Source: Acinetobacter phage ABPH49 | Sequence record: MH533020.1 | Direction: 5' to 3' (one strand) | Length of the DNA stretch: 64,000 nt | Shown: in pieces, positions 6,284 to 57,640 of the stretch | Position numbering within the stretch: the stretch's first letter is position 1 | How the letters are laid out: every line of letters starts with the position of its first letter | Position numbers and translations under genes: made by a program | Notes under the pieces: model-generated | What the model was told of the DNA's origin: nothing | Database searches by the model: none | Seen by the model: only the letters and a program-made list of their open reading frames with translations

Positions 6284-6474
6284 ATGAATTACGCGGAGGC
6301 GATCTTATCTTCCAGACACAATCCCGGCAGTCTCGTTAGAACCTAACACTCCCGTGGAAGTGCCCGTTTACGTATCTTGCCATTGATTTTCCTCTTCGCA
6401 GATGTGCAAAAAGGGACCCAAGAGGATCCCTTTAATTCGTTTGTCAGTTATTAGTTGACAGCCAGCGAACTCTA

Positions 6475-6819
6475 TTATAGAGTGAAGGTCGCAGTCTCCG
6501 TGGTGTTGTCGCTCATGTTGAAGGTCAGAGTGACAGTACCGCCCGCGTTATTGGCTGTGATGGTTTTAATACCACGTCCGGCAGCACCATCGGCACCCGC
6601 AGTACCTGTATCGCCTTTATCGCCTTTTGGTCCAGCAGGACCCGCAGGGCCTGTGTCACCTTTATCACCTTTTGGTCCCGGTGTGCCACCGCCGCCACCG
6701 ACCAAAGAGGCAACTTCAATTTGAGCGCCGGTCTTCAGGTCAACAATGGTGTGAGCAGTAACGACGCCACGGAATTGCCCTTCTGCATAGCGCTTCTGGA
6801 CCGTTTGGTCAATTGCCAT
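6475..6819 (-). CDS. collagen-like repeat protein (small fibre/whisker)
   Basis: 114 aa with GPKGDKGDTGPAGPAGPKGDKGDTGTAGADGAAG G-X-Y tract; preceded by TGgTAAAAT promoter-like motif at 6870-6878. Confidence 0.55.
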   Translation of the reverse strand: MAIDQTVQKRYAEGQFRGVVTAHTIVDLKTGAQIEVASLVGGGGGTPGPKGDKGDTGPAGPAGPKGDKGDTGTAGADGAAGRGIKTITANNAGGTVTLTFNMSDNTTETATFTL

Positions 6820-6901
6820 TTCTTCTCTCCTCTTTGAGGGTTTATGGCCCCGGAGGGCCGCGAGTTACTATTTTACCATAAATCAGAAAGATTTACGAGT
6901 G

Positions 6902-7915
6902 TCAAGAGTTTACCTTGTAAGTCACTGACATTTTCGTCAGGTCAAGGATTCCCGGGGAGAACATTACGGATCTGTTTCCCTTTGTGGCAGTGCTTCCGAG
7001 AGGGATGTTGATCTTCGACAGATCGGCGCTGTTGTAGTTGACAGTGGCTTCCATCGTTGCAGGGGTGCTTGCATCCGATCTCCTGCCAGAAGTCTCCAAC
7101 GTTTGACCGATCACTTCCCAACCTGAAGGGATTAGACCCGCAATATTCTCTGCTGCATATGTCTTAGGGTCTGCTCCCTTTTTCAATGATGTGGAGAAAG
7201 CCGACCACTCGGAACTTGCTAGGGCAGGACCCCAGTCAGACCCTACACCTACCCGGGTGTAAACCATGCGGATAGCACCGAGACGTCCTACAGGATTCTC
7301 TTCACCGGGAACATCATGCACCGAGTAGATGTCGGAGAACTCGATCCGCTGATCCCAGTTTACCGAGGGCAAGTATGATCCAGACCCTGCGGCTTGGAGA
7401 TATCTAGATCCGATAGTGATCTCAACCACGTACTTCTCAGGATGGAGATTGTAGGAAATAACCTCCACCCCGTCGTAGTACATCTTGGCCTTCAGGTTCT
7501 CCCAGTCGATTTCAACCTCGACATACACCGATGGTTGGTTGGTAGAGGGTCCCGGCAACCACATCAGCCCTGAGTCTGTGTCCCTCTTGGCATAAATCCA
7601 AGCGAGAGGCCCTGATTTGTTTGCTGACCCGAGCGACCTCAAGGTTCTAGCACCGACGATGAACTTGCCAGTTCTCGGCCTGCGGTTTGCGTCGGTTACC
7701 CAGTAATATCGGATAGCTCGGCTGAGGGTTGAGGCGTCAGTGCTATTGCTTTTGCCAACAATTCTGACATACGGGTTGGCTACGCCCGGAGCGCCATAAT
7801 GGTCAAACATCTGGTTGGATCCGTACTCGAGAGCGATATTATTCGAGTAGGGCATCTCTTCTGTCCAGAACATTGAGCCAAGTTTGTTGCTCAGTTCTGT
7901 ACCGTTAGCGCCCAT
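6902..7915 (-). CDS. tail fibre / receptor-binding protein
   Basis: 337 aa Ser/Gly/Asn-rich ORF in fibre cluster. Confidence 0.45.
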   Translation of the reverse strand: MGANGTELSNKLGSMFWTEEMPYSNNIALEYGSNQMFDHYGAPGVANPYVRIVGKSNSTDASTLSRAIRYYWVTDANRRPRTGKFIVGARTLRSLGSANKSGPLAWIYAKRDTDSGLMWLPGPSTNQPSVYVEVEIDWENLKAKMYYDGVEVISYNLHPEKYVVEITIGSRYLQAAGSGSYLPSVNWDQRIEFSDIYSVHDVPGEENPVGRLGAIRMVYTRVGVGSDWGPALASSEWSAFSTSLKKGADPKTYAAENIAGLIPSGWEVIGQTLETSGRRSDASTPATMEATVNYNSADLSKINIPLGSTATKGNRSVMFSPGILDLTKMSVTYKVNS

Positions 7916-7967
7916 GTCTTGATCCGATTTTGAGGCGAGGCATCCGAAGCTCCTGCGAACAGTAGCA

Positions 7968-8159
7968 TTATGTTTTACTCCTGATTATTAGTCCAATTCT
8001 TGTCGATGAGACTGACACCGCCGGTGGGGTATACATGACGAAACCAAGACGGGTTGATGATGCTGTGATCCCGATGGGTGGTTGGGTCACAAACCCCAGT
8101 CGTGTTGAAGACGCATCGTAGGCGGGGACAATCCCGCCACTAAGCAGCATTGTCCACAT
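7968..8159 (-). CDS. small triple-repeat protein (MWTMLL family), upstream of fibre gene
   Basis: 63 aa; three tandem SSTR(L/I)G(F/L)(V/I) repeats; paralogue of 9208-9399. Confidence 0.45.
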   Translation of the reverse strand: MWTMLLSGGIVPAYDASSTRLGFVTQPPIGITASSTRLGFVMYTPPAVSVSSTRIGLIIRSKT

Positions 8160-8161
8160 GA

Positions 8162-9208
8162 TTATCTCCCAGCCTTAATCTGAACGGTGAATGTTTCTCT
8201 CAGGTCAAGGCCACCGTCGAAATCTTCAGGCTTCAATACCAATTGACCTTTCGTCCTGATCACGGTATCAAGGTCGGAAGAAAGTGACTTACCTGCAAGT
8301 ACAGGGGCTGAACCACCATAGACGCTCATTTCCAGCTTGGAGGGTGAAGTGGGGTCTGCCTTCCCCGCTGCCATTTCAAAAGCAACCATCGCCACCTGCA
8401 TACCCGGCCGGTATGTATCTGATTGCTTTCCATGAGTAAAGGCTGAAACCGAAGTGCCAATTACCGCAGGGGTTGCAGAAAATACACCAACATCTTTAGC
8501 TGTTGCCTGTCCCGCAGCAAGCAAGGCACTAGAGGATCCGGTCACTGGTGAACTAAAATCCAAGACGATCGGACCAAGGCGTCCGGTAGGGTTTGGATCA
8601 TCTGGAAGGTCGATCGACACGTATCCATCAGAAAGCCGACAAGTGTCGTTTACTGCTTCGTTAAGGGCATATCCCTTACCAGATGACCAAGGATGGCTAC
8701 CTACGATCAGGGTCAGGTGACTGCCCCCGGTATCCAAATCTCGCGAAGAGGAAAGGACGCTATTCATGTAAACGTTCATCTTCTTGGCTACGAAGTCTGC
8801 CTCGATCTCGATGAAAGCTTCCGTTGCTGCTGAGGCTGCCAGTGTGTTATCTGCACCCCCGATGATGAAACCCCCGAAATACACGGTCCCTGTCACAACT
8901 GTTGGTCTTTTGATCCGGCACCCAAGAACAATCTTACCCTTTTGGTCTGCTGGACTAACGTTCATGAGGTAAGACCCTCCGCGACCTGCTGACCCGCCAT
9001 TGTTGATTACTTGCAGGAAGTAATCATTTGTCCCACCACTGCTAACGTAGGAGTTGGAAACAGAGGTCCCGCCAGAGATATTAACTGTCAACTTTCCCGC
9101 AAAGCGGTCGGAAACGTACTTTACCATGTTAACAGGATCGGTACTTGTCCCACCGTTGTTGGCGAAAAGTTTGAAACTCTCTTGAATGCCAAGGGTGTAA
9201 ATTGCCAT
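8162..9208 (-). CDS. tail fibre / receptor-binding protein
   Basis: 348 aa Gly/Ser/Thr-rich ORF; start overlaps stop of 9208-9399 (TAATG). Confidence 0.45.
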   Translation of the reverse strand: MAIYTLGIQESFKLFANNGGTSTDPVNMVKYVSDRFAGKLTVNISGGTSVSNSYVSSGGTNDYFLQVINNGGSAGRGGSYLMNVSPADQKGKIVLGCRIKRPTVVTGTVYFGGFIIGGADNTLAASAATEAFIEIEADFVAKKMNVYMNSVLSSSRDLDTGGSHLTLIVGSHPWSSGKGYALNEAVNDTCRLSDGYVSIDLPDDPNPTGRLGPIVLDFSSPVTGSSSALLAAGQATAKDVGVFSATPAVIGTSVSAFTHGKQSDTYRPGMQVAMVAFEMAAGKADPTSPSKLEMSVYGGSAPVLAGKSLSSDLDTVIRTKGQLVLKPEDFDGGLDLRETFTVQIKAGR

Positions 9209-9399
9209 TATGTTTTCTCCTTGTATACTCTAATAACACGCTCAACAGCGACCTTCGCAGAAGGGCTTGGGGTGTAGACCCGCACAACCCGGTTAACAGC
9301 GACCACTGTTTGAGGGGTCGGTACGTAAACCCTGACCACTCTCTCAACAGCTGCGGTTACTGTATCGTCCCGGCTATTAGCCAAAAGCATTGTCCACAT
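9208..9399 (-). CDS. small triple-repeat protein (MWTMLL family), upstream of fibre gene
   Basis: 63 aa; three tandem AVERVVRVY-x-P(T/S)P repeats encoded by about 51-nt direct repeats. Confidence 0.45.
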   Translation of the reverse strand: MWTMLLANSRDDTVTAAVERVVRVYVPTPQTVVAVNRVVRVYTPSPSAKVAVERVIRVYKEKT

Positions 9400-14565: not shown

Positions 14566-15692
14566 TTCTCAGTCTCTCCTGTTGGATTATTTGGCAGCTT
14601 TGGCGGCTTCAGCGCGAGCTTGATGATTTCGTCCAGCTTCTGTTGGGCGGTCAGCTCACCGGTAGCGGCTTTGTTCAGCTCACCATCAGCACCGACTTCT
14701 TTACCGTCAGCAAAGGACTTTTTGACTTCTGCGATTTCAGCATCTTTCGCAGCCAGAGCCGCTTGTGCTTTTTCCAGCAGGTCCAGAACCAGTTTGCTCT
14801 CAGCAGATTTCATCAGCATATCGGCGACTGGCTCACGCTGGTCTTCAGCGATGAACGCCATACCGGCAGCTTTGTTTACCAGAACTTCACGACGTGCTTC
14901 GTTGTGAGCCTTGATGATTTCTTCAGCCTTTGCTTCTTTCTCGGCAGCGGCGCTCTTCATCAGTTCGAGCTGGGCCTGCAAGTCTTGGAACTCTTTAGAC
15001 TTGGTAATGTCGAAAGCAACAGGGGCTTCAGTTTGGTTTTTGTCCACAGGTTTCTCCTTCGTTTTATTGAGGTCTTGCTGCTCCAGAGAAGGAGCCTTTG
15101 GTTGTGGCGGAGCCTGAGGGGCCGGAGCTGACGGAGCAGCTGGAACTTCAGGTTCTGCCGGATTCGCAGGGGCTGGCGGCTCAGAGAACACCAGACCGTT
15201 GTCTTCACAACCTTCTTCGAAGGTCTTGCGGATTTGGAAGACTTCGTATTGTTCTTTCAGAGAAAGCTCTTTGCCTTCTTTGGCAGACTTCAGCAGCTCA
15301 ATGCCCTGAGCTTTTTCCTCGATGTACTTCTGGTGTCGTTCGTTCCAGTCTTTATCCCAGTCATCCATCTTGTCGCCGTTTTCTTCCATGTTATACTCGG
15401 CTTCGGTTTGAAGGCCCAGTACCTTGGTCAACAGCTCTGCGTCGTCATACCACATGTCGAAGAAACGACGAAGGAACTCTTGCATACTGACTTTCAGCTG
15501 CACTTGTTCGAGAGACTTCATCATTTCAACGGTGAGAGTGTTAGGATCGATGTCTGACTTAGTCAGCAAGGAGACTGGCCTCAAGTTGGCGCTGTAACCT
15601 TGGTCCTTGTGAGTCAAAGCAATTCCTCGACTCTTGACACGACGACCTTTTTCAATGAAGGTTCTACCCTTCTGGATAAGGACGTTCAACAT
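14550..15692 (-). CDS. scaffolding protein
   Basis: 380 aa, highly charged, coiled-coil and AP-rich (AAPSAPAPQAPPQPKAP), typical scaffold composition. Confidence 0.55.
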   Translation of the reverse strand: MLNVLIQKGRTFIEKGRRVKSRGIALTHKDQGYSANLRPVSLLTKSDIDPNTLTVEMMKSLEQVQLKVSMQEFLRRFFDMWYDDAELLTKVLGLQTEAEYNMEENGDKMDDWDKDWNERHQKYIEEKAQGIELLKSAKEGKELSLKEQYEVFQIRKTFEEGCEDNGLVFSEPPAPANPAEPEVPAAPSAPAPQAPPQPKAPSLEQQDLNKTKEKPVDKNQTEAPVAFDITKSKEFQDLQAQLELMKSAAAEKEAKAEEIIKAHNEARREVLVNKAAGMAFIAEDQREPVADMLMKSAESKLVLDLLEKAQAALAAKDAEIAEVKKSFADGKEVGADGELNKAATGELTAQQKLDEIIKLALKPPKLPNNPTGETEKWLSM

Positions 15693-19808: not shown

Positions 19809-20199
19809 TTCTCCCCCAGTGACTCGTTGTATACGTCGATGAATCGTGTATCGATGGTCTTTTTCTTACCGGCGTCAGAGGCAGCGAACTCTGCCTGCTT
19901 CTTCGCAGTGTCCTTGTCCATCTGGTCAATCAACTTCTGTTTCTCTTCGGTTCTGGCACGCAGAGCAGCTGACAGGAGGGAGTTCTCAATGAACTTGCTG
20001 TCGATCTCTGTCTGCATCTTAGTACGCTTCTGCTCCCAAACTTGCTCTGAGGTCTGGTAACCTTTGTCGTAGGCTCATGCTCGAGGTGGCTGATATACAT
20101 CTTGCCTCCGAACACCAATGCCAACGCCAGACCGGCGACGATCAGGTATTTCCTGTACGTCGAGATCAGGCCGAGGATAAACTTCATGATGGTCTTCAT
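19805..20199 (-). pseudogene. i-spanin (Rz-like) split by apparent single-base deletion near 20072-20077
   Basis: N-terminal TM ORF (20199-19930) and coiled-coil ORF (20017-19805) are in frames -1 apart; coiled-coil frame open up to TGA at 20075-20077. Confidence 0.5.
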
Positions 20200-20414: not shown

Positions 20415-20491
20415 TGGTTGCGAGAGCCGGATTTGAACCGGCGACCACGGGAGTATGAACCCCGCATTCTTGACCGCTGAACTATCTCGCA
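20415..20491 (-). tRNA. tRNA-Met (anticodon CAT; could be Ile2)
   Basis: hand fold: 7-bp acceptor TGCGAGA/TCTCGCA, D-arm GTTC..GAAT, anticodon loop TTCATAC, T-loop GGTTCAAATCC, CCA encoded. Confidence 0.75.
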
Positions 20492-20584
20492 ATTGTTTGG
20501 CATACCCAACAGGATCTTACCCTGTATTTCCCCAAGCACCTGCGTCTTGGCAGCGTCCTAGATTTAGACGATGGATATATTGTT

Positions 20585-20661
20585 TGGTGGGACCAAGAGG
20601 GATCGAACCTCTGACCTGTGGACTTTCAAACCACCGCTCTAACCAACTGAGCTACAGTCCC
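20585..20661 (-). tRNA. tRNA-Phe (GAA)
   Basis: acceptor GGGACTG/TGGTCCC, D-arm GCTC-AGTTGGTTA-GAGC, anticodon loop TTGAAAG, T-arm AGAGG-TTCGATC-CCTCT. Confidence 0.7.
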
Positions 20662-20666
20662 GATGA

Positions 20667-20750
20667 TGGTGGGCAAGGAGAGACTTGAACTCTCACACCT
20701 AAGGCGCTGGAACCTAAATCCAGTGCGTCTGCCAATTCCGCCACTTGCCC
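20667..20750 (-). tRNA. tRNA-Leu (TAG), type II
   Basis: acceptor GGGCAAG/CTTGCCC, anticodon stem CTGGA/TCCAG loop TTTAGGT, long variable arm, T-loop TTCAAGT. Confidence 0.75.
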
Positions 20751-20912
20751 GGATGCCTGCTTTGTGAACCTAACGACCCGCCTTAGCTGACCGCCCCGGT
20801 GCAGGACTTATTTGCGCTGGGGTCCGAAGAAATCCCAGCCTTGTATTGGTGCGGTACTAGTTAACAATTCTATTGGCGTACCAATTACCTCTCGCAACTT
20901 TCCCGCATTGTT

Positions 20913-20987
20913 TGGTCAGAGTGGAGAGGATCGAACTCCCGAGGACCTGTTCCCAAAACAGGTGGCATACCGCTTGCCGACACTCTG
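20913..20987 (-). tRNA. tRNA-Pro (TGG)
   Basis: anticodon stem CCTGT/ACAGG loop TTTGGGA, T-arm GGGAG-TTCGATC-CTCTC, CCA encoded. Confidence 0.7.
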
Positions 20988-21041
20988 ATGTGTTAGTGCC
21001 CAGAGACGAAAGATGTTCTTATTCGTATCTAAAGGCTAATG

Positions 21042-21117
21042 TGGCGGTCCTGACCAGATTCGAACTGGCGACTCCTGCGTGACAGGCAGGCATGTTTACC
21101 GCTAATACCACAGGACC
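21042..21117 (-). tRNA. tRNA-Asp (GTC)
   Basis: acceptor GGTCCTG/CAGGACC, anticodon stem CCTGC/GCAGG loop CTGTCAC, T-loop TTCGAAT. Confidence 0.75.
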
Positions 21118-21232
21118 GAGGTTGCCACACTGAGCAGTGGCTGCTGGACCTTTAACGTCTTCCGTCGACATCTCTCGCCGTTTTTATGAGCGCAGCGCTT
21201 GTTTCCCTGCACTTACCACACGACTCTGGATT

Positions 21233-21308
21233 TGGCGGATGGTGCTGGATTCGAACCAGCTATCCTTGGCTTAACAGGCCACCGCATGTCCGTATATGCT
21301 CACCATCC
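21233..21308 (-). tRNA. tRNA-Asn (GTT)
   Basis: acceptor GGATGGT/ACCATCC, anticodon loop CTGTTAA, T-arm GCTGG-TTCGAAT-CCAGC. Confidence 0.7.
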
Positions 21309-21312
21309 AATT

Positions 21313-21387
21313 TGGTGGGTCGTGGAAGATTCGAACTTCCGATGTACGGTTTAAAAGACCGCTACCTTACCGCTTGGTCAACGACCC
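21313..21387 (-). tRNA. tRNA-Lys (TTT)
   Basis: acceptor GGGTCGT/ACGACCC, anticodon stem GCGGT/ACCGT loop CTTTTAA, T-loop TTCGAAT. Confidence 0.75.
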
Positions 21388-21801
21388 AAACTCAATATTC
21401 AAGACCCCAGCGTGGACCTTCCTGTGGCAATTTGATCACAAGATGACGCATTTTGAAATCTCTTCTTTAACTCTGGCAAGTCCGTAATTCAACATGCCTG
21501 AAATGTTACCTTCCTTCTCCGAAGGATCAAGGTGGTGGAAATCCAACGTACAAGGCTCTTTCTCGGAGCAGACTGAACAACCGCCTGCTTTAACAGATGC
21601 AACATATTCAACGCAACGAGCGCGGGATGCATCGTTATTCCGCATAATCCTAGCCCTGTGGGAAGGATCGTCCTTATATCTGTCGTTGTTTCTCTTCTTA
21701 GTGCACAACCGGCACCAATTCTGAAGACCATCCTTGTTGCTAGAGTTCTTATTGAACTCAGACTCATCTTTATCTTCGGAGCAGCGTCTGCAATGCTTCA
21801 T
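21367..21801 (-). pseudogene. HNH homing endonuclease interrupted by in-frame TGA at a conserved Cys codon (ORF track: 21436-21801; frame continues to 21367)
   Basis: CSVC...LDFHHLDPSEKEGN...KCVIL-TGA-SNCHRKVH: HNH zinc-finger motif continues in frame past the stop; located inside tRNA array, extended frame overlaps tRNA-Lys by about 20 nt. Confidence 0.55.
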
Positions 21802-21822
21802 CAGATCTCCTCCTCTTTGTTT

Positions 21823-21910
21823 TGGAGGAAGATAACAGAGTCGAACTGTCGCCGCTCTCGCAACGGGCCGGGGTTCAAATCCGGTTGCGTACCACTACGC
21901 CCTATCTTCC
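21823..21910 (-). tRNA. tRNA-Ser (TGA), type II
   Basis: acceptor GGAAGAT/ATCTTCC, anticodon loop TTTGAAC, 17-nt variable arm, T-arm ACAG-TTCGACT-CTGT. Confidence 0.65.
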
Positions 21911-21914
21911 AAAT

Positions 21915-21991
21915 TGGGGTGGCTTGTGGAATTCGAATCCACATAGGCCTGCCTCACAAGCAGGATCATTAACCAATTATGATAAAGCCAC
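21915..21991 (-). tRNA. tRNA-His (GTG)
   Basis: acceptor GTGGCTT/AAGCCAC with discriminator C, anticodon stem CCTGC/GCAGG loop TTGTGAG, T-arm GTGGA-TTCGAAT-TCCAC. Confidence 0.75.
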
Positions 21992-22063
21992 ATTTGAGCA
22001 TTCTCCTGCCAAGCGCCATCAGGGTTTCCCCATCCATCATCAAGGCCCAAAAACGCTCATATC

Positions 22064-22139
22064 TGGCTGGGAGTGGTGGATTCGAACCACCGATACCGAT
22101 TTCAAAGACCGGGGCATTAGGCCTCTATGCTAACTCCCA
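22064..22139 (-). tRNA. tRNA-Gln (TTG)
   Basis: acceptor TGGGAGT/ACTCCCA, D-arm GCAT..ATGC, anticodon loop CTTTGAA, T-loop TTCGAAT. Confidence 0.7.
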
Positions 22140-22288
22140 ATTGTATGAGTGCAGAGAGGAGGAGTCGCACCTCCATGCCGTGGGGCCAATCACGACAGTC
22201 ACCATCAGGCGGTTAATCCAATAATCGCATATCAACCGTGCACAGTATCAATACTTTCTGGATGCCGCGTTGCGACCTCTGCGTTGTT

Positions 22289-22359
22289 TGGAGCGGATAG
22301 AGGGATTCGAACCCTCACTACACAGCTTGGAAGGCTGGCGACACACCTTGTGCATACCC
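22289..22359 (-). tRNA. tRNA-Gly (TCC), short D-arm
   Basis: acceptor GCGGGTA/TATCCGC, anticodon loop CTTCCAA, T-arm GAGGG-TTCGAAT-CCCTC; only 71 nt with a reduced D-loop. Confidence 0.55.
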
Positions 22360-22532
22360 GCTTAAATTCTCTTTCGTACCACATCATCGGACCAGTTAAA
22401 TGGTTAATCGCTCACTGGCGTCCCAGATCACTTTCCCCACCTGTTAGTGTCAGTAACCGGAGATCAGCCCGGCACTATGCACCATCCAATGATATGGTCG
22501 GAAGAGAACTTCTCTTCTTTTGTCTGGTGCCA

Positions 22533-22693
22533 TTACAAAGTATACAGACGATTCAACATCTCCGCTGTTGGCACATGAGAAAGGCGTTGTTTTTCAAACT
22601 CCTCTTCCAGACCTTTGAAACGCTCACGTATGCGCTTCTTGTCTTCGTCAGTAAGCACCACTGGTTCTTTAGAGATATCCAGTAGCTCTTGCA
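22533..22693 (-). CDS. small hypothetical protein within tRNA array
   Basis: about 53 aa ORF with AAGGAGA RBS 8 nt before GTG; helical, charged. Confidence 0.35.
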
Positions 22694-22711
22694 AAGTAAT
22701 CACCAAGATGG

Positions 22712-22786
22712 TCTCCTTAATTGGTACTCCTACCGAGGATCGAACTCGGATTTCCAGATTGAAAGTCTGGCGGCCTAGCCATTAGC
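22712..22786 (-). tRNA. tRNA-Glu (TTC)
   Basis: anticodon stem CCAGA/TCTGG loop CTTTCAA, T-arm CCGAG-TTCGATC-CTCGG. Confidence 0.7.
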
Positions 22787-22793
22787 CGATAGG

Positions 22794-22868
22794 AGCATTA
22801 ATTTGGTTGGGGATGCTGGATTCGAACCAGCGACCTGACCCTTATCAAGAGCCTGCTCTACCACTGAG
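22794..22868 (-). tRNA. tRNA-Ile (GAT)
   Basis: acceptor TGGGGAT/ATCCCCA, D-arm GCTC-AGTGGTA-GAGC, anticodon loop TTGATAA, T-arm GCTGG-TTCGAAT-CCAGC. Confidence 0.75.
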
Positions 22869-22875
22869 CTAATCC

Positions 22876-22963
22876 CCAATTGTTCTGGCGGAAGATGAAG
22901 GATTTGAACCTTCGGGACCCATCAGGATCCTACTCCTTAGCAGGGAGCTGCATTACCGCTCTG
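22876..22963 (-). tRNA. tRNA-Ser (GCT), type II
   Basis: acceptor GGAAGAT/ATCTTCC, anticodon stem GCTCC/GGAGT loop CTGCTAA, 18-nt variable arm, T-loop TTCAAAT. Confidence 0.75.
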
Positions 22964-23124
22964 CCAATCTTCCAGTATTCTTTATGTTCGTCGGCTTGCA
23001 TCTTTCAGCGTCGCATGGAGAGAGCCGTCTCTTTATCCATACCGAATTGGGTGCCCCTGTGCATCAGAACTGTTGAGTGGGTGTTTCCAGCCGCGCAGGT
23101 GTTCCTCATTTTAGGGGCATTGTT

Positions 23125-23204
23125 TGGTGCACCGTGATGGAGTCGAACCACCCGAGTCATCTCTGACAGCAGATTTACAGTCTGCCCCGCTACCCCTACG
23201 GTCT
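23125..23204 (-). tRNA. tRNA-Tyr-like (GTA), type II, imperfect 5' half
   Basis: perfect anticodon arm GCAGA-CTGTAAA-TCTGC, variable arm, T-arm GGTGG-TTCGACT-CCATC, 3' ACGGTGC-A-CCA; 5' acceptor strand pairs only 5 of 7. Confidence 0.4.
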
Positions 23205-23282
23205 AACAATGCATTGTCCTCACTTATAGCTGAGCAAGTGATCCTTCTCAGTTATAAGTGGCCTCTTTCGAGGCACACTTTA

Positions 23283-23654
23283 TTAATCTTCACCTTCCGC
23301 CATCTTATACTCACGAATCTGAGTTGTCAATGGCATTTTCGACATATCCATCTGAGTGTTGTGAGCGTCAGAACTTGCCGAGGCAGTACCTCCGGCGTCC
23401 TTATCCTCATTCTCCTCGGTGATATACGCCGCTTGAGCAGTTTGAGCTTGCTCAATGATGAATTTAGATGTTGTCTCACGAACTTTTTCAGATTCTGCGA
23501 CAAGCAATGACTTCAACGTCTTCAAAGCTTCCGGTACAAGATCTGCAATACCGGCCTTCAGGTCGAGCATTGCTTTATCCATCTTAATAGCAACGGATTC
23601 CTCGGCCCTTGGTCGCCCACGTCGCCGTGTGACAATAGCAGCCTTTGTTGCCAT
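23283..23654 (-). CDS. AT-hook-like DNA-binding protein
   Basis: MATKAAIVTRRRGRPRAEE (RGRP AT-hook core), acidic C-terminus; AGGAG RBS; ORF track lists longer 23283-23696. Confidence 0.4.
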   Translation of the reverse strand: MATKAAIVTRRRGRPRAEESVAIKMDKAMLDLKAGIADLVPEALKTLKSLLVAESEKVRETTSKFIIEQAQTAQAAYITEENEDKDAGGTASASSDAHNTQMDMSKMPLTTQIREYKMAEGED

Positions 23655-23772
23655 GTCTAAGCTCCTGTTTAATAAGCGATGTATCCATCTTACCATCGTT
23701 TATCAAGTATTGCAAGAGCTTTTTAACATTGAAACAAAAAAGCCCCTGTCAGAAGACAAGGGCTTTTAGATC

Positions 23773-24093
23773 TTACTTACGCTTGCCTTTTACAGGCGCT
23801 GCCGCTGGTGCTTCGACCTTTTGTGCCTTCATGGCGCGTTCGCGCTCACGGCGGGTCTTACCAGTACGGACACGGTGGGATACTTTCAGTACCTCTCCGC
23901 CGACAGCTTCAGACACTGACTCCCACTCGCCCTTACGGTGGTTGTAGCGCTGAACAGTGATGGTCTTGCCACCCAGACGCAGGTCTTTTACCGGCGAGTG
24001 GGTCTGAGTCGAATAGGACTCAAATTGGAACGGATGGATGATCGCATCAATCGCGGACACTTTCTTATTCGCTTGGTTCTTAGCCATTACCAT
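23773..24093 (-). CDS. hypothetical basic protein (Lys/Arg-rich C-terminus)
   Basis: about 107 aa; GAAGGAGAAA RBS; immediately downstream of minus-strand promoter 24143-24171. Confidence 0.4.
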   Translation of the reverse strand: MVMAKNQANKKVSAIDAIIHPFQFESYSTQTHSPVKDLRLGGKTITVQRYNHRKGEWESVSEAVGGEVLKVSHRVRTGKTRRERERAMKAQKVEAPAAAPVKGKRK

Positions 24094-24142
24094 TTCTCCT
24101 TCATCAATGAAAACAATCAACTATGTCCAACTCAGTAATTCT

Positions 24143-24171
24143 ATCTTACATTTGACTTGATTCTTTGTCAA
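24143..24171 (-). promoter_or_regulatory. sigma70-like promoter TTGACA-N17-TAAGAT (minus strand)
   Basis: read on minus strand between tRNA-Leu(CAA) and 23773-24093. Confidence 0.5.
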
Positions 24172-24192
24172 TGTAATTTTTAAAAATTTATT

Positions 24193-24279
24193 TGGTGCGG
24201 GATGTGGGACTCGAACCCACAGAGCCGAAGCTCACCAGCGTTTGAAACTGGCGTGTACTGCCGATACCACCAATCCCGC
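24193..24279 (-). tRNA. tRNA-Leu (CAA), type II
   Basis: acceptor GCGGGAT/ATCCCGC, anticodon stem CCAGT/GCTGG loop TTCAAAC, variable arm TGAGCTTCGGCTC, T-arm TGTGGGTTCGAGTCCCACA. Confidence 0.65.
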
Positions 24280-24584
24280 AATTAAGTTGAGCAGAGGACG
24301 TATGCTCATGGGCTGACAACCCTTTTCGTCCAGCATGTCCCTCACGGGACGTCGGCGAGAGGCGCTGTGTATCCGCCTGAACTATCCGCAGCCAAAATGC
24401 TCACGGACCTTTCTCGCCCACCCGATCAGTTGTCATCCTGAACAGGGAACTCTTGAATAATGCCGGGACCCGATTATTTCATTCCGCCTTCCGCTACATT
24501 CGGGTCAAGATGCGCCATCTGGGTCGGGGTTGACCGCTTCCACTCCTCGTCGTACAACGGCTTCACGGGAGTCGTGTGGAAAAT

Positions 24585-24660
24585 TGGAGCAACGTACTGG
24601 ACTTGAACCAGTGAACACCTCATTTGCAGTGAGAGCCGTTACCAACTCCGGCAACGTTGC
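24585..24660 (-). tRNA. tRNA-Cys (GCA)
   Basis: acceptor GCAACGT/ACGTTGC, D-arm CCGG-AGTTGGTAA-CGGC, anticodon loop CTGCAAA, T-arm ACTGG-TTCAAGT-CCAGT. Confidence 0.75.
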
Positions 24661-24847
24661 ATATTTTAGGGGTGGTGACATCAGGGCGGGGTCCCGCTAC
24701 CTGACCGGAGGTTCGAACTCCGTTAACCTTACCAGTCACCACTTTGTGTTAAGGCCCTATTACTTACCGTCCCATTGTATCGCAACTCCGGGCTTATTGA
24801 TTATCAGGCGGCTATGACTACCTCTTCCTGAACGGCATTGTTTGGCT

Positions 24848-25078
24848 TCACTTTCCCGACCTTTCGTATTTTTCTCTTCTTTTTGCCGGGTCGTACCTTC
24901 GTGAGTATGTTTCAGACATGAATTCAGAACACTTTTCGCATCTGCACCCACGCTTATACTTTCTTTCCGTTCCACATTGGGATACTGTGCTTCTTCTTGC
25001 ACGTGTGTTACAGGAAAGGTGGCTGAAAGATATGTTATCAAGATCAAAGAACATACCTTTTGGGTCTTTACTGTCCAA
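24848..25078 (-). CDS. small Cys-rich hypothetical protein
   Basis: 76 aa with CxxxxC...CRCEKC; weak RBS; lies in low-coding stretch of tRNA array. Confidence 0.25.
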   Translation of the reverse strand: MDSKDPKGMFFDLDNISFSHLSCNTRARRSTVSQCGTERKYKRGCRCEKCSEFMSETYSRRYDPAKRREKYERSGK

Positions 25079-25265
25079 CCACGGAACCTTGTGCTCTATT
25101 GAAAATAGTATCCCTGCTCATAGGCAGGCCGCAATGGAAACAAAGGTTATTACCAGAATCCTCTATCATTTTCCATAGAATATCCTTTACTAATCTGTTA
25201 GATGCTGTACCTATAGACATCCCTAGCTGATCTTTCTTTTTATCCACGAAAATTCATCCTTGTAA

Positions 25266-25342
<77 letters not shown>

Positions 25343-25409
25343 TATGTTATCTAAGAGCACCATACTACATATTCTGTTTTTAACTGTCAAGAACTTTTTA
25401 AAATTTATT

Positions 25410-25483
25410 TGGTGCTGGTTGACGGAATCGAACCGCCTTAGGTGCATTACAAGTGCACTGCATCTCCAGTGTGCTAAACCAGC
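25410..25483 (-). tRNA. tRNA-Thr (TGT)
   Basis: acceptor GCTGGTT/AACCAGC, anticodon stem GTGCA/TGCAC loop CTTGTAA, T-arm GGCGG-TTCGATT-CCGTC. Confidence 0.7.
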
Positions 25484-26387: not shown

Positions 26388-26584
26388 TCTATCTCCTCAA
26401 CTTCATACGGGTACACTTCATAAAACTCCCCGTTGAACAAGACAAGCCAATAATCGACATTGCCGTGGTCATCAAGGATCTCTTCGTCGACGGTTAAGAT
26501 GTCTCCCTCTTTCGGACCTTTTCTGCCAGTCTCGATATCCCAGTCATCAACCATCTTCAGTTTATTTGCCATTTCCACCCCCAT
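26384..26584 (-). CDS. hypothetical protein
   Basis: 66 aa ORF overlapping downstream gene by ATGA. Confidence 0.35.
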   Translation of the reverse strand: MGVEMANKLKMVDDWDIETGRKGPKEGDILTVDEEILDDHGNVDYWLVLFNGEFYEVYPYEVEEIE

Positions 26585-31415: not shown

Positions 31416-31889
31416 ATGCAAAAAACTAAATCCTGCGAGTGCCACCTGTGCGTTCGCTCCCGCGATATCCAAGAACATCTGGATCTTGTGAACGATCCAA
31501 TCATCAGGAAAGGCCTGCGTCGCCTGATCCTTGAAATCGATCATGAGCTGGAGATCGCAAATACCGACAACGGCCGTCTTGAAGCGATCATCGCCGGGAC
31601 GTGGCACAATGCCGATGAGGTTATGAATAAGGCCGGTTGGGTTCGCAAGCAAGAAGAGGCCGAATTTAAACCTTTCAACGCGTACATCAAATCACACTCA
31701 GTGTTCGGCACTCTGCTGTTCGAGGGCTATGGTGTGGTGATTGAACGGCGTGCACACGGGGCATCCTACCTTGTTCGCTGCCAAGACGGTGTTGAGCGTG
31801 AAGTGTTCCTCTCGAGCAACAAGTATCCAAAAGATCGACTGCAAATGGTGGGCCAAAATGAAAAATTCAGTTCCGCTCTCACTGAGTAA
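31416..31889 (+). CDS. hypothetical Cys-rich protein
   Basis: 157 aa, N-terminal CECHLC; AAGAGGGGAG RBS. Confidence 0.4.
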   Translation: MQKTKSCECHLCVRSRDIQEHLDLVNDPIIRKGLRRLILEIDHELEIANTDNGRLEAIIAGTWHNADEVMNKAGWVRKQEEAEFKPFNAYIKSHSVFGTLLFEGYGVVIERRAHGASYLVRCQDGVEREVFLSSNKYPKDRLQMVGQNEKFSSALTE

Positions 31890-38762: not shown

Positions 38763-39196
38763 AGATAACAGACAAGCACGTATTGTTCTTTTCATACAAG
38801 GATATGTTCAGCAACCACTTCCGGTCTGAACGCCCATTCTTCTCTCCACGTCATGAGCGTGACGGGGTTAAGTTCTATACCGGCGAGCACTTCATGATGT
38901 ATGAGAAGGCAAAGCTGTTCGGTGATGAAGAGATCTCAAAGAAGATCCTTGAAACATTCCACCCTCAGGAGGCAAAGAAGCTCGGACGGCTGGTGAAGGG
39001 GTTCAACAACGATGTGTGGGAGTATCACCGTGAGGACATAATCTTCTCGATCGTGTATTGCCGGTTGGTATACGACCAACACCTACGCCTGTCGGCGCTC
39101 AATCACCGCATGGATGGCCGATCATTCGTTGAGGCGTCCCCTTGGGACAAGATCTACGGCATCGGTCTGAAGGAGACTGACCCTGCGTGCGGCTGA
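38759..39196 (+). CDS. NADAR (YbiA/DUF1768) domain protein
   Basis: FFSYKDMFSNHF...GEHFMMYEKAKLF...KKLGRLVKGFNNDVW...FVEASPWDKIYGIG matches YbiA/NADAR pattern across full length; GTG start. Confidence 0.7.
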   Translation: MKITDKHVLFFSYKDMFSNHFRSERPFFSPRHERDGVKFYTGEHFMMYEKAKLFGDEEISKKILETFHPQEAKKLGRLVKGFNNDVWEYHREDIIFSIVYCRLVYDQHLRLSALNHRMDGRSFVEASPWDKIYGIGLKETDPACG

Positions 39197-39397
39197 CGAT
39201 CCATCCCAATGGAAAGGATTAAACCTCCTCGGCAAGGCGTGGGACAACGCCACAGACGCTCTGGCGGAAAAGTGCGGAGGGTACGAGCTTATGAGTAAGG
39301 AGAGAGCAACATGGGGCATATAATGCTACTGATGGTTTACGCTGGATGGTTCTCATCGGTGGCGTGGCTAAGTTTTACTGGGAAACTGCATTTTACC

Positions 39398-43929: not shown

Positions 43930-44567
43930 ATGAAGATCATTGCTTTAAATGCCCCTGCGAACTCCGGCAAAGACGAGATCGCTAAATACCTGAGCAAAAA
44001 TACGGCACCGTGCACATGGAGATCAAAGAGCTGCTGTTCGAAGTGGCTATCCGCGCCGCCGGGGTCAGCAAAAAGCTCTGGGAAGCACTGTATGAGCGCG
44101 AGTACAAAGAGCGCCCATGCCCATACCTGATGATCAACGGACAAAACGTCAGCCCGCGTGAGTGGATGATCCATTGTTCTGAGGGACTGATGAAGCCGAT
44201 CTTCGGCAACACTGTGTTCGGCGACGCCCTCCGCAAGAAACTCGAGGCTTTGGAAGAAGAGAATGCCGGTAAAGAGTTGGTGATCGTCCTGTCCGATGGG
44301 GGCTTCGTTGCTGAGGCGATTCCAAACATGGATTTTGTCGGTGTTCACAATTACTACCTCGCCCGCGTGCAGCGCGTGGATGAAAACGGTGACCCAAGCA
44401 AATACGGCTTCGGGGCAGATAGTCGCCGGTTCTTGTACGCCAGTGACTTTGGCTTCGCTATCCGTGCCGTTGATTGGGAAAACCGACCAAATGAGCTTGA
44501 GCAGCTGGCAGAAGAGATCTATGCCGACGCAATGGCTAACAAAAAGAGCAGCTGGGAGCAACCATGA
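43930..44567 (+). pseudogene. deoxynucleoside monophosphate kinase-like P-loop kinase split by apparent A-run deletion at 43996-44000
   Basis: MKIIALNAPANSGKDEIAKYLSKN (frame a) continues as YGTVHMEIKELLFE... in frame -1; one extra A in CAAAAAT restores a 212-aa ORF. Confidence 0.5.
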
Positions 44568-47233: not shown

Positions 47234-49507
47234 TTGATCAACAAGATTGTAAAGGCCAACGGTTCCACGGTAGACTTCGATCCTGCAAAACTGAACGGCT
47301 GGGCCAAGTGGGCGGCTCAGTATGGTGTAGACTGGAGCAACATCGCACTGCAAGCAGTTAAAAAGTGTTTCGATGGTTGTTCCACGAAAGACCTTCAGCA
47401 AGCAATGATCGACGCCTGCGTTGACCGTGTGGATGAGCCGCATATGATGATGGCAGGACGCCTTCTGATTGGCAACATCTACAAAGAGGCCTTTGGCGGT
47501 CATGATAAGATCCCTACGCTGAAAGACTTCTACCACAGCATGGTTGGAAAGGGCTTTTGGCAGGAGATGGATTACACCGATGAAGAGCTGGATGTGATCG
47601 ACCGCTTCATCGACCATGACAAAGACCTGAATACACCGTACCCGGAACTGAACCAGATCCGAACGAAGTACACCTGCATCGACCGTGTTAATGACGTGTG
47701 CCATGAAAGCCCACAGTTCATGTACATCGGCATGGCGATGAAGAACATGGAGAAATCTCCGAAAGACGAGCGAATGACTGACATTAAGATGCTGTACACG
47801 TATCTGAGTGACAAGAAGATCAACGCTCCAACGCCATTTATGGTAAACCTTCGCACTCCGAAGGGCGGCTATGCCTCCTGTTGCGTAAGCACCACCGAGG
47901 ACACGGCCCCGTCTCTGGCGGCAGCAGACCACATCAACTACATGATGACCTGCGCCTCCGCCGGGATCGGTGCTCACATTAAGAGCCGCAGCAAGTGGGA
48001 CGCCGTGGGTAAAGGTCAGGTTGTCCACCAAGGCAAAATGCCGTACTACCGTGCGACTGTTGCTATGGTGAGTGCAAACCTCCAGTCCAGTCGTGGTGGT
48101 GCAGCAACAATGCACTTCAACTGCATGGACCCTGAGGTTGAGGACCTGTTGCAGCTGAAGAACCCGACGACTGTGACCCAGAAGCAGATCCGCGACATCG
48201 ACTACTCGTTCGGTGCCATGCGTCTGTTCGGTAAGCACGTAGCCAAGAACTTGCCTTGGATGCTGATCAGCTACGCTGCGGCACCGGACCTGTACGAAGC
48301 GGCTTACTCTGAGGATCAGGTTGAGTTCGAGCGCCTTTACGAGCAATACGCTAACGATGAAAAGACCAAGAAGGCTTTCATCTCGGCACGTGAACTGCTG
48401 GTCCTGAACTTGACGCAGCGGATTGAAACTGGCAGGATCTATCAGCACTTCACTGACCGCCTGAACCAGCAGACTCCGTTCAAAGACAAGATCTACAGCT
48501 CGAACCTGTGCCAAGAGATCGGCCTGCCGACCAAAGGGTACGACAACGTTCACCAGCTGAACGAAGCGTCTGAGAGCGGAGAGATTGGTCTGTGCAGCCT
48601 GTCAGCGTTGGTTGCTGGCCGTATCAAGGATGAAGAGTACGGTGACGTGGCGTATTACGCGCTGAAAATGGTTGACAACGTGATCGATTTGATGGAATAT
48701 CCATTCCCTCAGCTCGAGTTCACCGCGAAGGCCCGTCGGAGCATCGGCATCGGGATCACCAACTTGGCGTATGCTATGGCGAAGAACGGCTACAGCTACT
48801 CAACGGAAGAGGGTCGTAATTACGTGCACCGTCTGGCAGAGCTTCACAGCTACAGCCTGCACCGTGCAAGTCTGCGACTGGCTAAAGAACGTGGAGTGTG
48901 CGACTGGATTGGCCGGACCAAATACCCACAGGGTTGGTTCCCACATGATGCAGCTGTACCTGCGGTGGATACAGTCCACTCCCAGCCTCTGCTTCAGGAC
49001 TGGGAGACTCTCCGCAAAGAGATCGTTGAGTCCGGTGGTATTCGACACAGCGTCCTCGAGGCACACATGCCTTGCGAGAGCAGCTCGGTGGCAAGTGGTA
49101 CGCTTAACGGCCTGTATCCGGTTCGTTCACTGAAGACCGTGAAAAGCTCGGGCAATGAGCGCAAGAACGTCGTAATCGTCCCAGAGTACGATAAGCTGAA
49201 GGACAAGTACGACATTGCGTGGGAAGTGAGTACCAAGCATCTGACGGAGATTTATGCCCTTGTGCAGAAATTTACCGGTCAGGGGATCAGTGCCGACTTC
49301 TACGTCGTATTCAAGGAAGGTGAAGAGCGTAAGATCAGTACCCGCGTATTGATCAGCGACTACCTCTACATGATGAAGATGGGGCTGAAGACTGCTTACT
49401 ACCTCAACAGCAAAACCTCGGTTGCCGGTCTGAACACTGGCGTCCGTGATGCAGTTGTCGAGGAGCAGGAGAACGAAGATTGCGCCGGTGGTGGCTGCAA
49501 GCTGTAA
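47234..49507 (+). CDS. nrdA: ribonucleotide reductase large subunit (class I, NrdA)
   Basis: 757 aa; N-terminal ATP-cone (KANGSTVDFDPAKL), catalytic region with conserved Cys/Asn/Glu context; TTG start. Confidence 0.85.
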   Translation: MINKIVKANGSTVDFDPAKLNGWAKWAAQYGVDWSNIALQAVKKCFDGCSTKDLQQAMIDACVDRVDEPHMMMAGRLLIGNIYKEAFGGHDKIPTLKDFYHSMVGKGFWQEMDYTDEELDVIDRFIDHDKDLNTPYPELNQIRTKYTCIDRVNDVCHESPQFMYIGMAMKNMEKSPKDERMTDIKMLYTYLSDKKINAPTPFMVNLRTPKGGYASCCVSTTEDTAPSLAAADHINYMMTCASAGIGAHIKSRSKWDAVGKGQVVHQGKMPYYRATVAMVSANLQSSRGGAATMHFNCMDPEVEDLLQLKNPTTVTQKQIRDIDYSFGAMRLFGKHVAKNLPWMLISYAAAPDLYEAAYSEDQVEFERLYEQYANDEKTKKAFISARELLVLNLTQRIETGRIYQHFTDRLNQQTPFKDKIYSSNLCQEIGLPTKGYDNVHQLNEASESGEIGLCSLSALVAGRIKDEEYGDVAYYALKMVDNVIDLMEYPFPQLEFTAKARRSIGIGITNLAYAMAKNGYSYSTEEGRNYVHRLAELHSYSLHRASLRLAKERGVCDWIGRTKYPQGWFPHDAAVPAVDTVHSQPLLQDWETLRKEIVESGGIRHSVLEAHMPCESSSVASGTLNGLYPVRSLKTVKSSGNERKNVVIVPEYDKLKDKYDIAWEVSTKHLTEIYALVQKFTGQGISADFYVVFKEGEERKISTRVLISDYLYMMKMGLKTAYYLNSKTSVAGLNTGVRDAVVEEQENEDCAGGGCKL

Positions 49508-49551: not shown

Positions 49552-50648
49552 ATGTCCGTATTCAACAAAGAGAATAACAACTGGAAAACTGGTAAGTACC
49601 CCCTGTTTTTGGGAGAGCAACTGGGCCTTCTCGACACCGTAAACACACCATACAAGCGCCTGTTCGAACTGTACAAGCTGCAAAAGAGCATCGACTGGGA
49701 CGAGAACGAGATGAACCTCGAGCAGTCACGTTTGGACATGGCAACCTGCCTGCCGGGCACCCGAAACCTGATGATCAAGAACTTGGCATTCCAAGCCGAG
49801 CTTGATGGTATCGCGGCACGATGCATGGCACCGCTGCTGGCACCGTTCATCACCAACACGGAGATGTGGCTGGGAGTATCCAAGATCACCGAGGTGGAAA
49901 ACCTCCACGCGATCACTTACACCACGATCATCCGCAACGTACTGAAGAATCCAGAAGAGTTCTTCGAAGAGATCACCAAGAACGAGAAGATCTTCGATCG
50001 TTCTGACAGCGTAATGGAAGTATTTGACGAGCTGGCGATCGCCGGTGCAAAATACACGCTGGACAAAAACTCCATCCCGCGCCGCGAGCTTATGTCTCTG
50101 CTGTTGCGTGCCTACGTGGGCATTTACTGTCTGGAGCGACTCCAGTTCATGTCTTCGTTCGCTGCAACCTTCGCGATCGGCGAGCAGGGCATGATGGTCG
50201 GGATCGCCAAGCTGGTATCGAAGATGCTCAGGACGAGCAGCTGCACGCAGCGTTCGACGAGGAAGTTATTCGGATCCTGTTGGCAGACCCAGAGTGGGCG
50301 GAAGTTTACGAAGAGATTAAGCCGTTTGTGCTGCGCTTTGTAAACGCTGTAACCAAGAGCGAGCTGGACTGGAACGAATATCTGTTCTCCGAGGGTCGTC
50401 AGATCGTTGGCCTGAACCGCCAGTTGCTGGACGAATGGGTCCTGTTGAACGCGGGTGTGGTGTACAAGTTCTTGGGCGTTGAAAACCCGCACAAGATCAT
50501 CGATGTGTCCCCGATCACTTGGATGGGCGATTGGCTGGATATCTCCAAGTTCCAGTTCGCGGCACAAGAAGGTGACATCACCGACTACCCAATGAACGTC
50601 GTGAGTAATGACGTTTCCGATGATGAAGAATTCGACTTCGAGGGATAA
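49552..50648 (+). pseudogene. nrdB: ribonucleotide reductase small subunit NrdB, split by apparent single-T deletion near 50216
   Basis: N-terminal frame (to 50343) and C-terminal frame (50280-50648) are -1 apart; AKLV|IEDAQDEQLH aligns to E. coli NrdB AKIIRLIARDEALH when one T is restored in GGTATC. Confidence 0.75.
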
Positions 50649-50649
50649 G

Positions 50650-50943
50650 ATGAGCTACATTGTCTTTGGTAAAGAGAACTGCCCGTACTGCGTCCGCGCC
50701 AAGAACCTTCTGGAGCTTGGTGGGTTTGAGTACCGGTACTTGGATGTAGGTAAGGACGGCCATGCCTTCCAAACCATGCTGGACTGGGTCACAGATGCAA
50801 CGGGGACCGGCCCGAAATCGGTACCTCAGATTTTCGTTGACGAAGACGACACCATGACGTACATTGGTGGACACGACGACTTGGTATTGGCCCTCAACAA
50901 GGCCAAGACTGAAGAGTTGGGCGACGAAGACTTCGACTTTTGA
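50650..50943 (+). CDS. glutaredoxin (NrdC/NrdH-like)
   Basis: 97 aa, CPYC active site, immediately after nrdB. Confidence 0.7.
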   Translation: MSYIVFGKENCPYCVRAKNLLELGGFEYRYLDVGKDGHAFQTMLDWVTDATGTGPKSVPQIFVDEDDTMTYIGGHDDLVLALNKAKTEELGDEDFDF

Positions 50944-56228: not shown

Positions 56229-56386
56229 ATCCAGACTTCCTCGCGGCAGTTAGCTGTTACCCGGACGTGTGGATCTCTTATATCGGTACAGAATCTTGGG
56301 ACGATAGCATTGAAGTTATCGTGACTTCAAAAAATGAAAAGTCGGTGTCTGAGCTGGCAGAAAGATTCGGAGGTAAGAATGGCTGA
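56174..56386 (+). CDS. hypothetical protein
   Basis: 70 aa, GAGGAG RBS; overlaps previous ORF by 55 nt. Confidence 0.35.
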   Translation: MAGPKRDFDKVFEFETAVNPDFLAAVSCYPDVWISYIGTESWDDSIEVIVTSKNEKSVSELAERFGGKNG

Positions 56387-57640
56387 TATCAAAAATATCT
56401 GGTTGGTGGCGCTGTCCGCGACATGCTGATGGGCAAGGAACCAAAAGACCGCGATTACGTGGTGGTTGGGTCTACCCATGAGGAGATGATCTCCCTTGGC
56501 TTCGGTATGCCATTTGGTGCGGCATTCCCTGTCTATCACCACCCTGAAACCAAGGAAGAGTATGCACTGGCACGTACAGAGCGCTCAACCGGTCCGGGTT
56601 ACCACGACTTCGAGACTTTGTTCTCGCCTGACGTAACTCTGGAACAGGACCTGCTTCGCCGCGACCTGACGATCAATGCGATCGCATACGACGAAGAGAC
56701 TGGTGAGTTCATCGATCCGCATGGCGGTGTTGAAGACATCAAAAATAAACAGCTGCGTCCGGTAAACCCAAAGGCATTCCTTGAGGATCCTCTGCGAATC
56801 TACCGACTGGCTCGTCTGTTTGCCCGGTACGGCGGTGAGTTCCAAATCGGTTGGCGCACCATGTGGCTGGTAACTCAGGCTGTCAAAGCCGGTGGCCTGA
56901 ACCACCTGCCAAAGGAAAGGAAATTCGCCGAGATCGAGAAGTGCTTCAAAGACGACTCTCGCAGCAACAAACCTTCCATGATGATCACCTTCTTGGCAGA
57001 TATCGGTGAACTGCCGGAGATTGCTGCTCTGGAAGGTGTCCCACAACCGGCGGAGCACCATCCTGAGGGTGACGCTTTCGTCCACACTATGTTGGTGATG
57101 GATGCCGCGTTCAATCTGGGGGCGAGCGCACAGGAGCTGTTCGCAGCCATGCTGCACGACGTGGGAAAGGCCGTGGTTTACGAAAAGTACGGCAAGCTTC
57201 ACGGTCACGAAGAGGCGGGTGTTCCGGTAGTGGAGCAAGTGTGCGACCGGTTTGGTGTACCACTCAGCTGGAGAAAGCTGGCGGTTGTGTGCACAGAGAA
57301 TCATGGCCGGGTCCACAAAATCCGCGACATGCGCCCAAAAAAGGTTCTGGCACTCCTTGAACGATTGAAAGCAGAGCAATCCTTTGATACGATGCTGTCA
57401 CTGTGTCTGGTTTGTCAGGCCGACGCATGGGGACGTGGCCCGGATCGTTATGGAAAGATGTACCTGCAAGGGGTGTACCTGATGAATGTTGCAGAAGCTC
57501 TGGCACTGGCACGGAAAGATCTGAAGATCAAAAACCGTGAAATTGCCTTGCAATGCAAAGGTAATCCGGGTAAGATTGCTGAAAGAGTTCGGGCAGAGAA
57601 ACTGTCCGTGGTAAAATCCGCGATACGGGAGATGAGTTGA
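56379..57640 (+). pseudogene. cca: tRNA nucleotidyltransferase (CCA-adding enzyme, class II + HD domain) with apparent A-run deletion at 56391-56395
   Basis: MADIKN (frame x) then YLVGGAVRDMLMG...RDLTINA...HDVGK in frame -1; restoring one A gives MADIKKYLVGGAVRD, the canonical N-terminus. Confidence 0.75.

Follow-up and report, generated by a model that had tools for sequence, protein, structure and literature searches.

The class Ia small subunit of ribonucleotide reductase (RNR) from Escherichia coli, NrdB (PDB 1JPR, 1MXR, 1RIB and others), has metal ligands, a radical tyrosine and the residues W48 and Y356 that are all matched by the repaired product of the gene discussed here. This gene is the nrdB at 49552-50648 of the window, which is the whole 64,000-nucleotide stretch of Acinetobacter phage ABPH49 (MH533020.1) that was analyzed. 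The similarity to the E. coli protein is moderate at the level of sequence, and in the window as written three of the matching residues, E229, H232 and Y346, are encoded in a different reading frame from the rest.

Interruption of a phage RNR gene inside its coding sequence has a precedent in Aeromonas phage Aeh1. In that phage, nrdA was split by the insertion of the mobE homing endonuclease gene, an event that also created the tails needed for assembly of the two polypeptides (Crona et al. 2010, PMC3045599). The Aeh1 pieces have their own translation signals in addition to these new assembly-mediating tails. The nrdB of the window is likewise an interrupted phage RNR gene, but unlike Aeh1 nrdA it contains no insert, offers no start codon for a second piece, and its break is not conserved.

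Phage relatives and gene neighborhood

A megablast search of 50,697 phage records identified two relatives of the window, vB_SmaM-Kashira (ON287374.1) and vB_SmaM-ChuuTotoro (ON287369.1), both of the Vequintavirinae. Their host is Serratia marcescens LVF3 and their source German sewage. Around nrdB, Kashira aligns at 99.8% identity over 1,401 bases with a single gap, and ChuuTotoro at 84%. Over its full length the window is a mosaic relative to Kashira, with identities of 96-99.9% and a few divergent stretches of about 88%; judged by this comparison, it is a distinct close relative of Kashira and not Kashira itself. The genomes of both relatives come from Illumina MiSeq reads with a coverage of about 50-fold (PMC10070969), and from this platform and coverage the lengths of their base runs are likely reliable.

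The genes surrounding nrdB are well preserved. The partner gene nrdA, encoding the class I RNR large subunit (47234-49507, + strand), is present and intact on the 5' side, and its 757-aa product is 100% identical to Kashira NrdA, with Pfam matches to PF02867 (300.6 bits) and PF00317 (35 bits). Directly 3' of nrdB lies an intact glutaredoxin gene, grx (50650-50943, + strand; PF00462, 49.4 bits), whose product is also 100% identical to that of Kashira. The Kashira gene order nrdA-nrdB-grx-hypothetical-endolysin-phoH is the same in the window. In all, this is an ordinary nrdB of class Ia in the usual nrdA-nrdB-grx arrangement, carried by a Serratia phage of the Vequintavirinae that resembles Kashira.

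The nrdB reading frames as written

On the + strand, nrdB begins at the ATG at 49552, with an AAGGAGA ribosome-binding site just 5' of it. Its coding information is divided between two adjacent frames, as seen on translation. The 5' part (49552-50225, frame A) encodes Met1 to Lys224, followed by the AT that opens the Ile225 codon, and includes W49, D85, E116, H119, Y123 and E195. The 3' part (50226-50648, frame B) encodes Ala226 to Gly365 and ends with the TAA stop codon at 50646-50648. This second part includes E229 (50235-50237), H232 (50244-50246), Y346 and the acidic C-terminal tail ...DDEEFDFEG, which is found in frame B only and is consequently missing from the as-written product. Frame A reads ...GIAKLVSKMLRTSS..., whereas the -1 frame reads ...IEDAQDEQLHAAFDEEV... 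as far as the TAA. Taken together, the halves encode every residue of the protein except Ile225.

As written, the open reading frame yields a product of 263 aa, the last 38 of which are out of frame. It is good NrdB sequence as far as GIAKLVSK, then continues as MLRTSSCTQRS... to a TGA stop codon at 50341-50343, the complete out-of-frame tail (50224-50343, + strand) being MLRTSSCTQRSTRKLFGSCWQTQSGRKFTKRLSRLCCAL. This tail was matched by none of the best 120 of 158 homologues, for which coverage of the query ends at about 86% (residues 1-225). The interruption is present in the sequence as given and is not a chance pattern, since the N-terminal fragment alone scores 75.7 bits against PF00268 (profile positions 7-200 of 281) and, once repaired, the protein matches Kashira NrdB at 100% identity, including residues 226-365 encoded by the 3' part.

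Position and repair of the missing base

The break was placed by a three-way DNA alignment of the codon 225 region, which reads TCG AAG ATT GCT CAG in Kashira, TCT AAG ATC GCT CAG in ChuuTotoro and TCG AAG AT- GCT CAG in the window. The absent base is the second T of the ATT codon for Ile225, between positions 50225 and 50226 (+ strand); the corresponding sequences are GAAGATTGCTCAG in Kashira and GAAGATGCTCAG in the window. Kashira nrdB thus has ATT at codon 225 and an unbroken reading frame, while the window has AT and a frameshift. Addition of one T after 50225 gives a 1,098-nt nrdB (49552-50648) encoding a 365-aa protein that is 100% identical to Kashira NrdB (URC22717.1). Apart from the missing T, the gene differs from that of Kashira by one synonymous base in 1,098 nt. 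The local peptide becomes AKLVSKIAQDEQLH, and the K-I pair that it restores at the break is invariant in 25 of 25 aligned homologues, down to about 45% identity. Around the break, nrdB identity is 99.9% to Kashira and 84% to ChuuTotoro, and the gene is in frame in both.

An earlier note, made from the sequence alone, had proposed a TT-to-T loss within 50200-50230 and the recovery of a full-length 365-aa NrdB from a single restored T, and both proposals agree with the alignment to the two relatives and with the repaired translation. It had, however, assigned the deletion to GGTATC at 50214-50219, about 10 bases upstream of the true site at 50225/50226. Insertion of a T at 50215/50216 does open the frame and produce the peptide that had been predicted, AKLVIEDAQDEQLH, but this peptide contains the sequence IED, and neither was seen in any of the 25 aligned homologues. 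An intron, an intein or a homing endonuclease was also considered as the source of the interruption and rejected. Compared with Kashira, there is no additional DNA in the window, and the missing base is the sole length difference within the gene.

NrdB family membership and effect of the break

The repaired protein belongs to the Ribonuc_red_sm family (PF00268; 106.1 bits, against a cut-off of 33.6) and, over residues 15-363, matches E. coli NrdB structures with E = 1.4e-44. Structure-sequence alignment pairs W49 with E. coli W48, D85 with D84, E116 with E115, H119 with H118, Y123 with Y122 and E195 with E204. At the break and beyond it, I225 corresponds to I234, E229 to E238, H232 to H241 and Y346 to Y356. 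The break lies four codons before E229, in the helix to which E. coli E238 and H241 belong, and the placement of the lesion in an iron-ligand helix had therefore been correct.

As written, the protein is left with the radical tyrosine and four of its six iron ligands; it loses E229, H232, Y346 and the C-terminal tail, which bears the radical-transfer tyrosine and docks on NrdA. One polypeptide carries the full set of six metal ligands (D, E, H, E, E, H) together with the radical tyrosine only after a T is restored at 50225/50226. Because it lacks the E229/H232 pair, the radical-transfer Y346 and the NrdA-binding tail, the as-written product would be unable to assemble the diiron site or to pass a radical to NrdA, and is predicted to be inactive.

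Recoding and split-gene explanations

Two explanations would allow the sequence to stand as written and the enzyme to function. Under the first, -1 ribosomal frameshifting or transcriptional slippage near 50221-50228 would restore full-length NrdB. The geometry is suitable, as the overlap of the two frames extends over 50028-50340, frame B being open from 50028 on. Hypothetically, re-reading of the G at 50226 after AAG AUG would result in a conservative change of Ile225 to Met. Against this, a scan of the frame overlap (50028-50340) for X_XXY_YYZ slippery heptamers was empty, in keeping with the earlier expectation that programmed frameshifting is unlikely, and a scan of base runs in the overlap revealed no long A/T run at the break on which transcriptional slippage could occur. 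The longest run is an A5 at 50065, about 160 nt upstream, and a single T is left at the site itself. The downstream RNA (50226-50325) has a predicted minimum free energy of -27.8 kcal/mol compared with a mean of -27.15 for shuffled sequences (z = -0.21), an ordinary fold for pseudoknot-free secondary structure. Genuine programmed frameshifts are normally conserved among relatives, yet the nrdB frameshift is not: the gene is in frame in Kashira and ChuuTotoro, as it is in the 4,241 phage records that match at least 80% of NrdB in one place and in the best 120 of 158 homologues from a set of 5.8 billion proteins, which are all 354-447 aa with none truncated. Recoding of either kind is accordingly very improbable, and the same slight probability applies to the more specific proposal that the single T is real, that full-length NrdB arises through non-canonical recoding at AAG-AUG-C, and that the other broken genes of the window are rescued alike.

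Under the second explanation, nrdB would encode two polypeptides that assemble into a functional small subunit, as do NrdA-a and NrdA-b of Aeh1. There is a precedent for a fragmented RNR subunit that functions (PMC3045599), and the two halves of nrdB jointly cover all residues but Ile225. In frame B, however, no ATG, GTG or TTG follows the stop codon at 50025 until a TTG at 50280, which is downstream of the codons for both E229 and H232, so the second polypeptide would begin past these residues and be left without either ligand. The resulting 122-aa open reading frame matched no Pfam family. Further, no mobile element or other insert separates the halves, and the break is missing from a relative that is 99.9% identical. 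The earlier note had named a verified sequence together with evidence for a split but functional small subunit as what would overturn its reading; the missing start codon essentially refutes that arrangement, which must be considered even less probable than recoding. Jointly, recoding and a functional split would account for a very small share of the probability at most.

Additional frame-breaking indels in the window

When each gene annotated in this region of Kashira was compared with the window, nrdB proved not to be the only gene affected. Seven further frame-breaking indels relative to Kashira occur in conserved genes, making eight with nrdB. Two are CC-to-C changes in genes on the - strand: one at 14619, near the C-terminus of the KASHIRA_00710 homologue, and one at 20073, which splits the 131-aa KASHIRA_00760 homologue into pieces matching residues 1-46 and 43-131. 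At 31854, the 01110 homologue gains an 11-aa tail in place of its final residue through a change from A5 to A4. A tandem duplication that adds TGCG at 39184-39187 throws the final 44 codons of a NADAR-domain gene (PF08719) out of frame, and 188 nt downstream, at 39372, a T5-to-T4 change affects an overlapping 62-aa gene (the 01280 homologue); these two lesions do not compensate for one another. On the + strand, an A6-to-A5 change at 43995 interrupts a dNMP kinase gene (about 43930-44564) just past its P-loop, MKIIALNAPANSGKDEIAKYLSK, parting this motif from the rest of an enzyme that is in frame in both Kashira and ChuuTotoro. A second A6-to-A5 change, at 56390 (+ strand), falls in codon 5 of a gene (about 56378-57640) encoding a PolyA_pol head domain (PF01743) and an HD domain (PF01966), with the loss of its start. 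The homologue of this last gene is annotated as a "DNA methylase" in Kashira and as a "Poly A polymerase" in ChuuTotoro, and the Kashira label looks like a misannotation.

ChuuTotoro agrees with Kashira at all five of the sites checked, namely nrdB, 39184-39187, 39372, 43995 and 56390, and the window therefore carries the derived state at these five. The reverse possibility, that Kashira is the broken genome, was rejected, as no gene is split in Kashira yet intact in the window. All seven single-base coding indels, nrdB included, are deletions in base runs (binomial p = 0.016), the changes being A6 to A5 twice, T5 to T4, A5 to A4, CC to C twice and TT to T. Coding indels that preserve the frame number one, as against seven that break it by the same tally, or eight with 31854 included. 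Codon differences between the window and Kashira over 46.6 kb amount to 351 synonymous and 80 non-synonymous, which shows that substitutions are strongly constrained by purifying selection. Most neighboring proteins are 100% identical to those of Kashira. The broken genes are all auxiliary or hypothetical; none of the capsid, portal, terminase or tail genes is broken.

Intergenic DNA also differs from that of Kashira by five single-base indels, at 26577, 28425, 30389, 36483 and 1358. Three are insertions and two are deletions; four of the five are changes in base-run length that occur in both directions, whereas the single-base indels in coding DNA are all deletions.

Probable consensus error and the mutational alternative

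The nrdB break is probably an error of the consensus sequence, in which one T at the Ile225 codon would have gone missing through base calling, consensus polishing or assembly, and its cause thus appears to be technical as opposed to mutational. This reading leads over a biological event specific to nrdB because at least seven further frame-breaking indels occur in the same window. Error-prone sequencing platforms leave indel errors at base runs in consensus sequences, and the window likewise holds several single-base deletions in runs of identical bases that break otherwise perfectly conserved genes. The combination of purifying selection on substitutions with an excess of frame-breaking deletions in one direction is hard to obtain from natural evolution and would be expected of a deletion-biased consensus error. 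In addition, nrdB displays no other decay, with its one synonymous difference from Kashira and with the NrdA and Grx proteins 100% identical on either side. The lesions do not conform in every respect to platform error, however, as three of the affected runs (TT to T once and CC to C twice) comprise just two bases and the TGCG duplication at 39184 does not look like a typical homopolymer error; some of the lesions of the window may accordingly be real.

If the deletion is real, it would represent a very recent loss-of-function mutation that makes nrdB a pseudogene and leaves an intact NrdA beside a dead NrdB. The phage would have lost its small RNR subunit and would draw on the dNTP supply of the host, with the other breaks attributable to a relaxation of selection, as might occur on propagation in the laboratory. 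Phages can often do without an RNR of their own if that of the host is available, and the frameshift is, after all, present in the sequence as given. The 4-bp tandem duplication at 39184 resembles replication slippage more than it does a base-calling error. Likewise, the broken genes are non-structural or hypothetical while every recognizable virion and packaging gene is intact, a pattern also expected of real, tolerated mutations; its chance under random errors, about 0.07 by a crude length argument, is nevertheless not small. Such a history, however, would require some eight independent frame-breaking events in the face of the 351:80 ratio of synonymous to non-synonymous differences and of neighbors that are mostly 100% identical to their Kashira counterparts. 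All of the single-base events would have to be deletions in base runs, and neither nrdB nor its partner nrdA has otherwise decayed. The deleted allele is also absent from the other collections searched, where the pattern AAGATN{0,1}GCTCAGGACGAGCAGCTGCA, which covers both the deleted and the intact allele, had no matches in viral_contigs, metagenome_contigs or genome_contigs. Exact-match look-ups of the 263-aa product, of the 122-aa downstream open reading frame and of a divergent tail-region protein of the window likewise yielded no entry. Recent mutational loss of nrdB is for these reasons the less likely reading, though the main alternative and a far more serious candidate than recoding or a functional split, and consensus error remains the preferred explanation. 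In either case the lesion is a technical error or a plain frameshift mutation, both of which are familiar, and nothing novel is involved.

Implications for annotation

Taken at face value, the sequence would lead to the annotation of nrdB as truncated or split and of the dNMP kinase, the poly(A)-polymerase/HD protein and others as broken, and the uncorrected nrdB could be misread to indicate a phage that lacks a working ribonucleotide reductase. The comparison with Kashira provides eight positions to be re-verified before annotation. Should the nrdB deletion prove real, it would illustrate on a small scale how a phage sheds genes for its own dNTP synthesis, a case of modest interest and with no new mechanism.

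Other differences from Kashira

Elsewhere in the window, mosaicism is concentrated in a hot spot at 6443-9229 (- strand), where the flanking structural proteins share 98-100% identity with those of Kashira but a pair of proteins, each of about 340 aa, reaches only 60% and 82%. These two divergent proteins may determine host range. A cluster of 19 tRNA genes at 20415-25483 (- strand) is rearranged, with indels, relative to the 20-tRNA cluster of Kashira.
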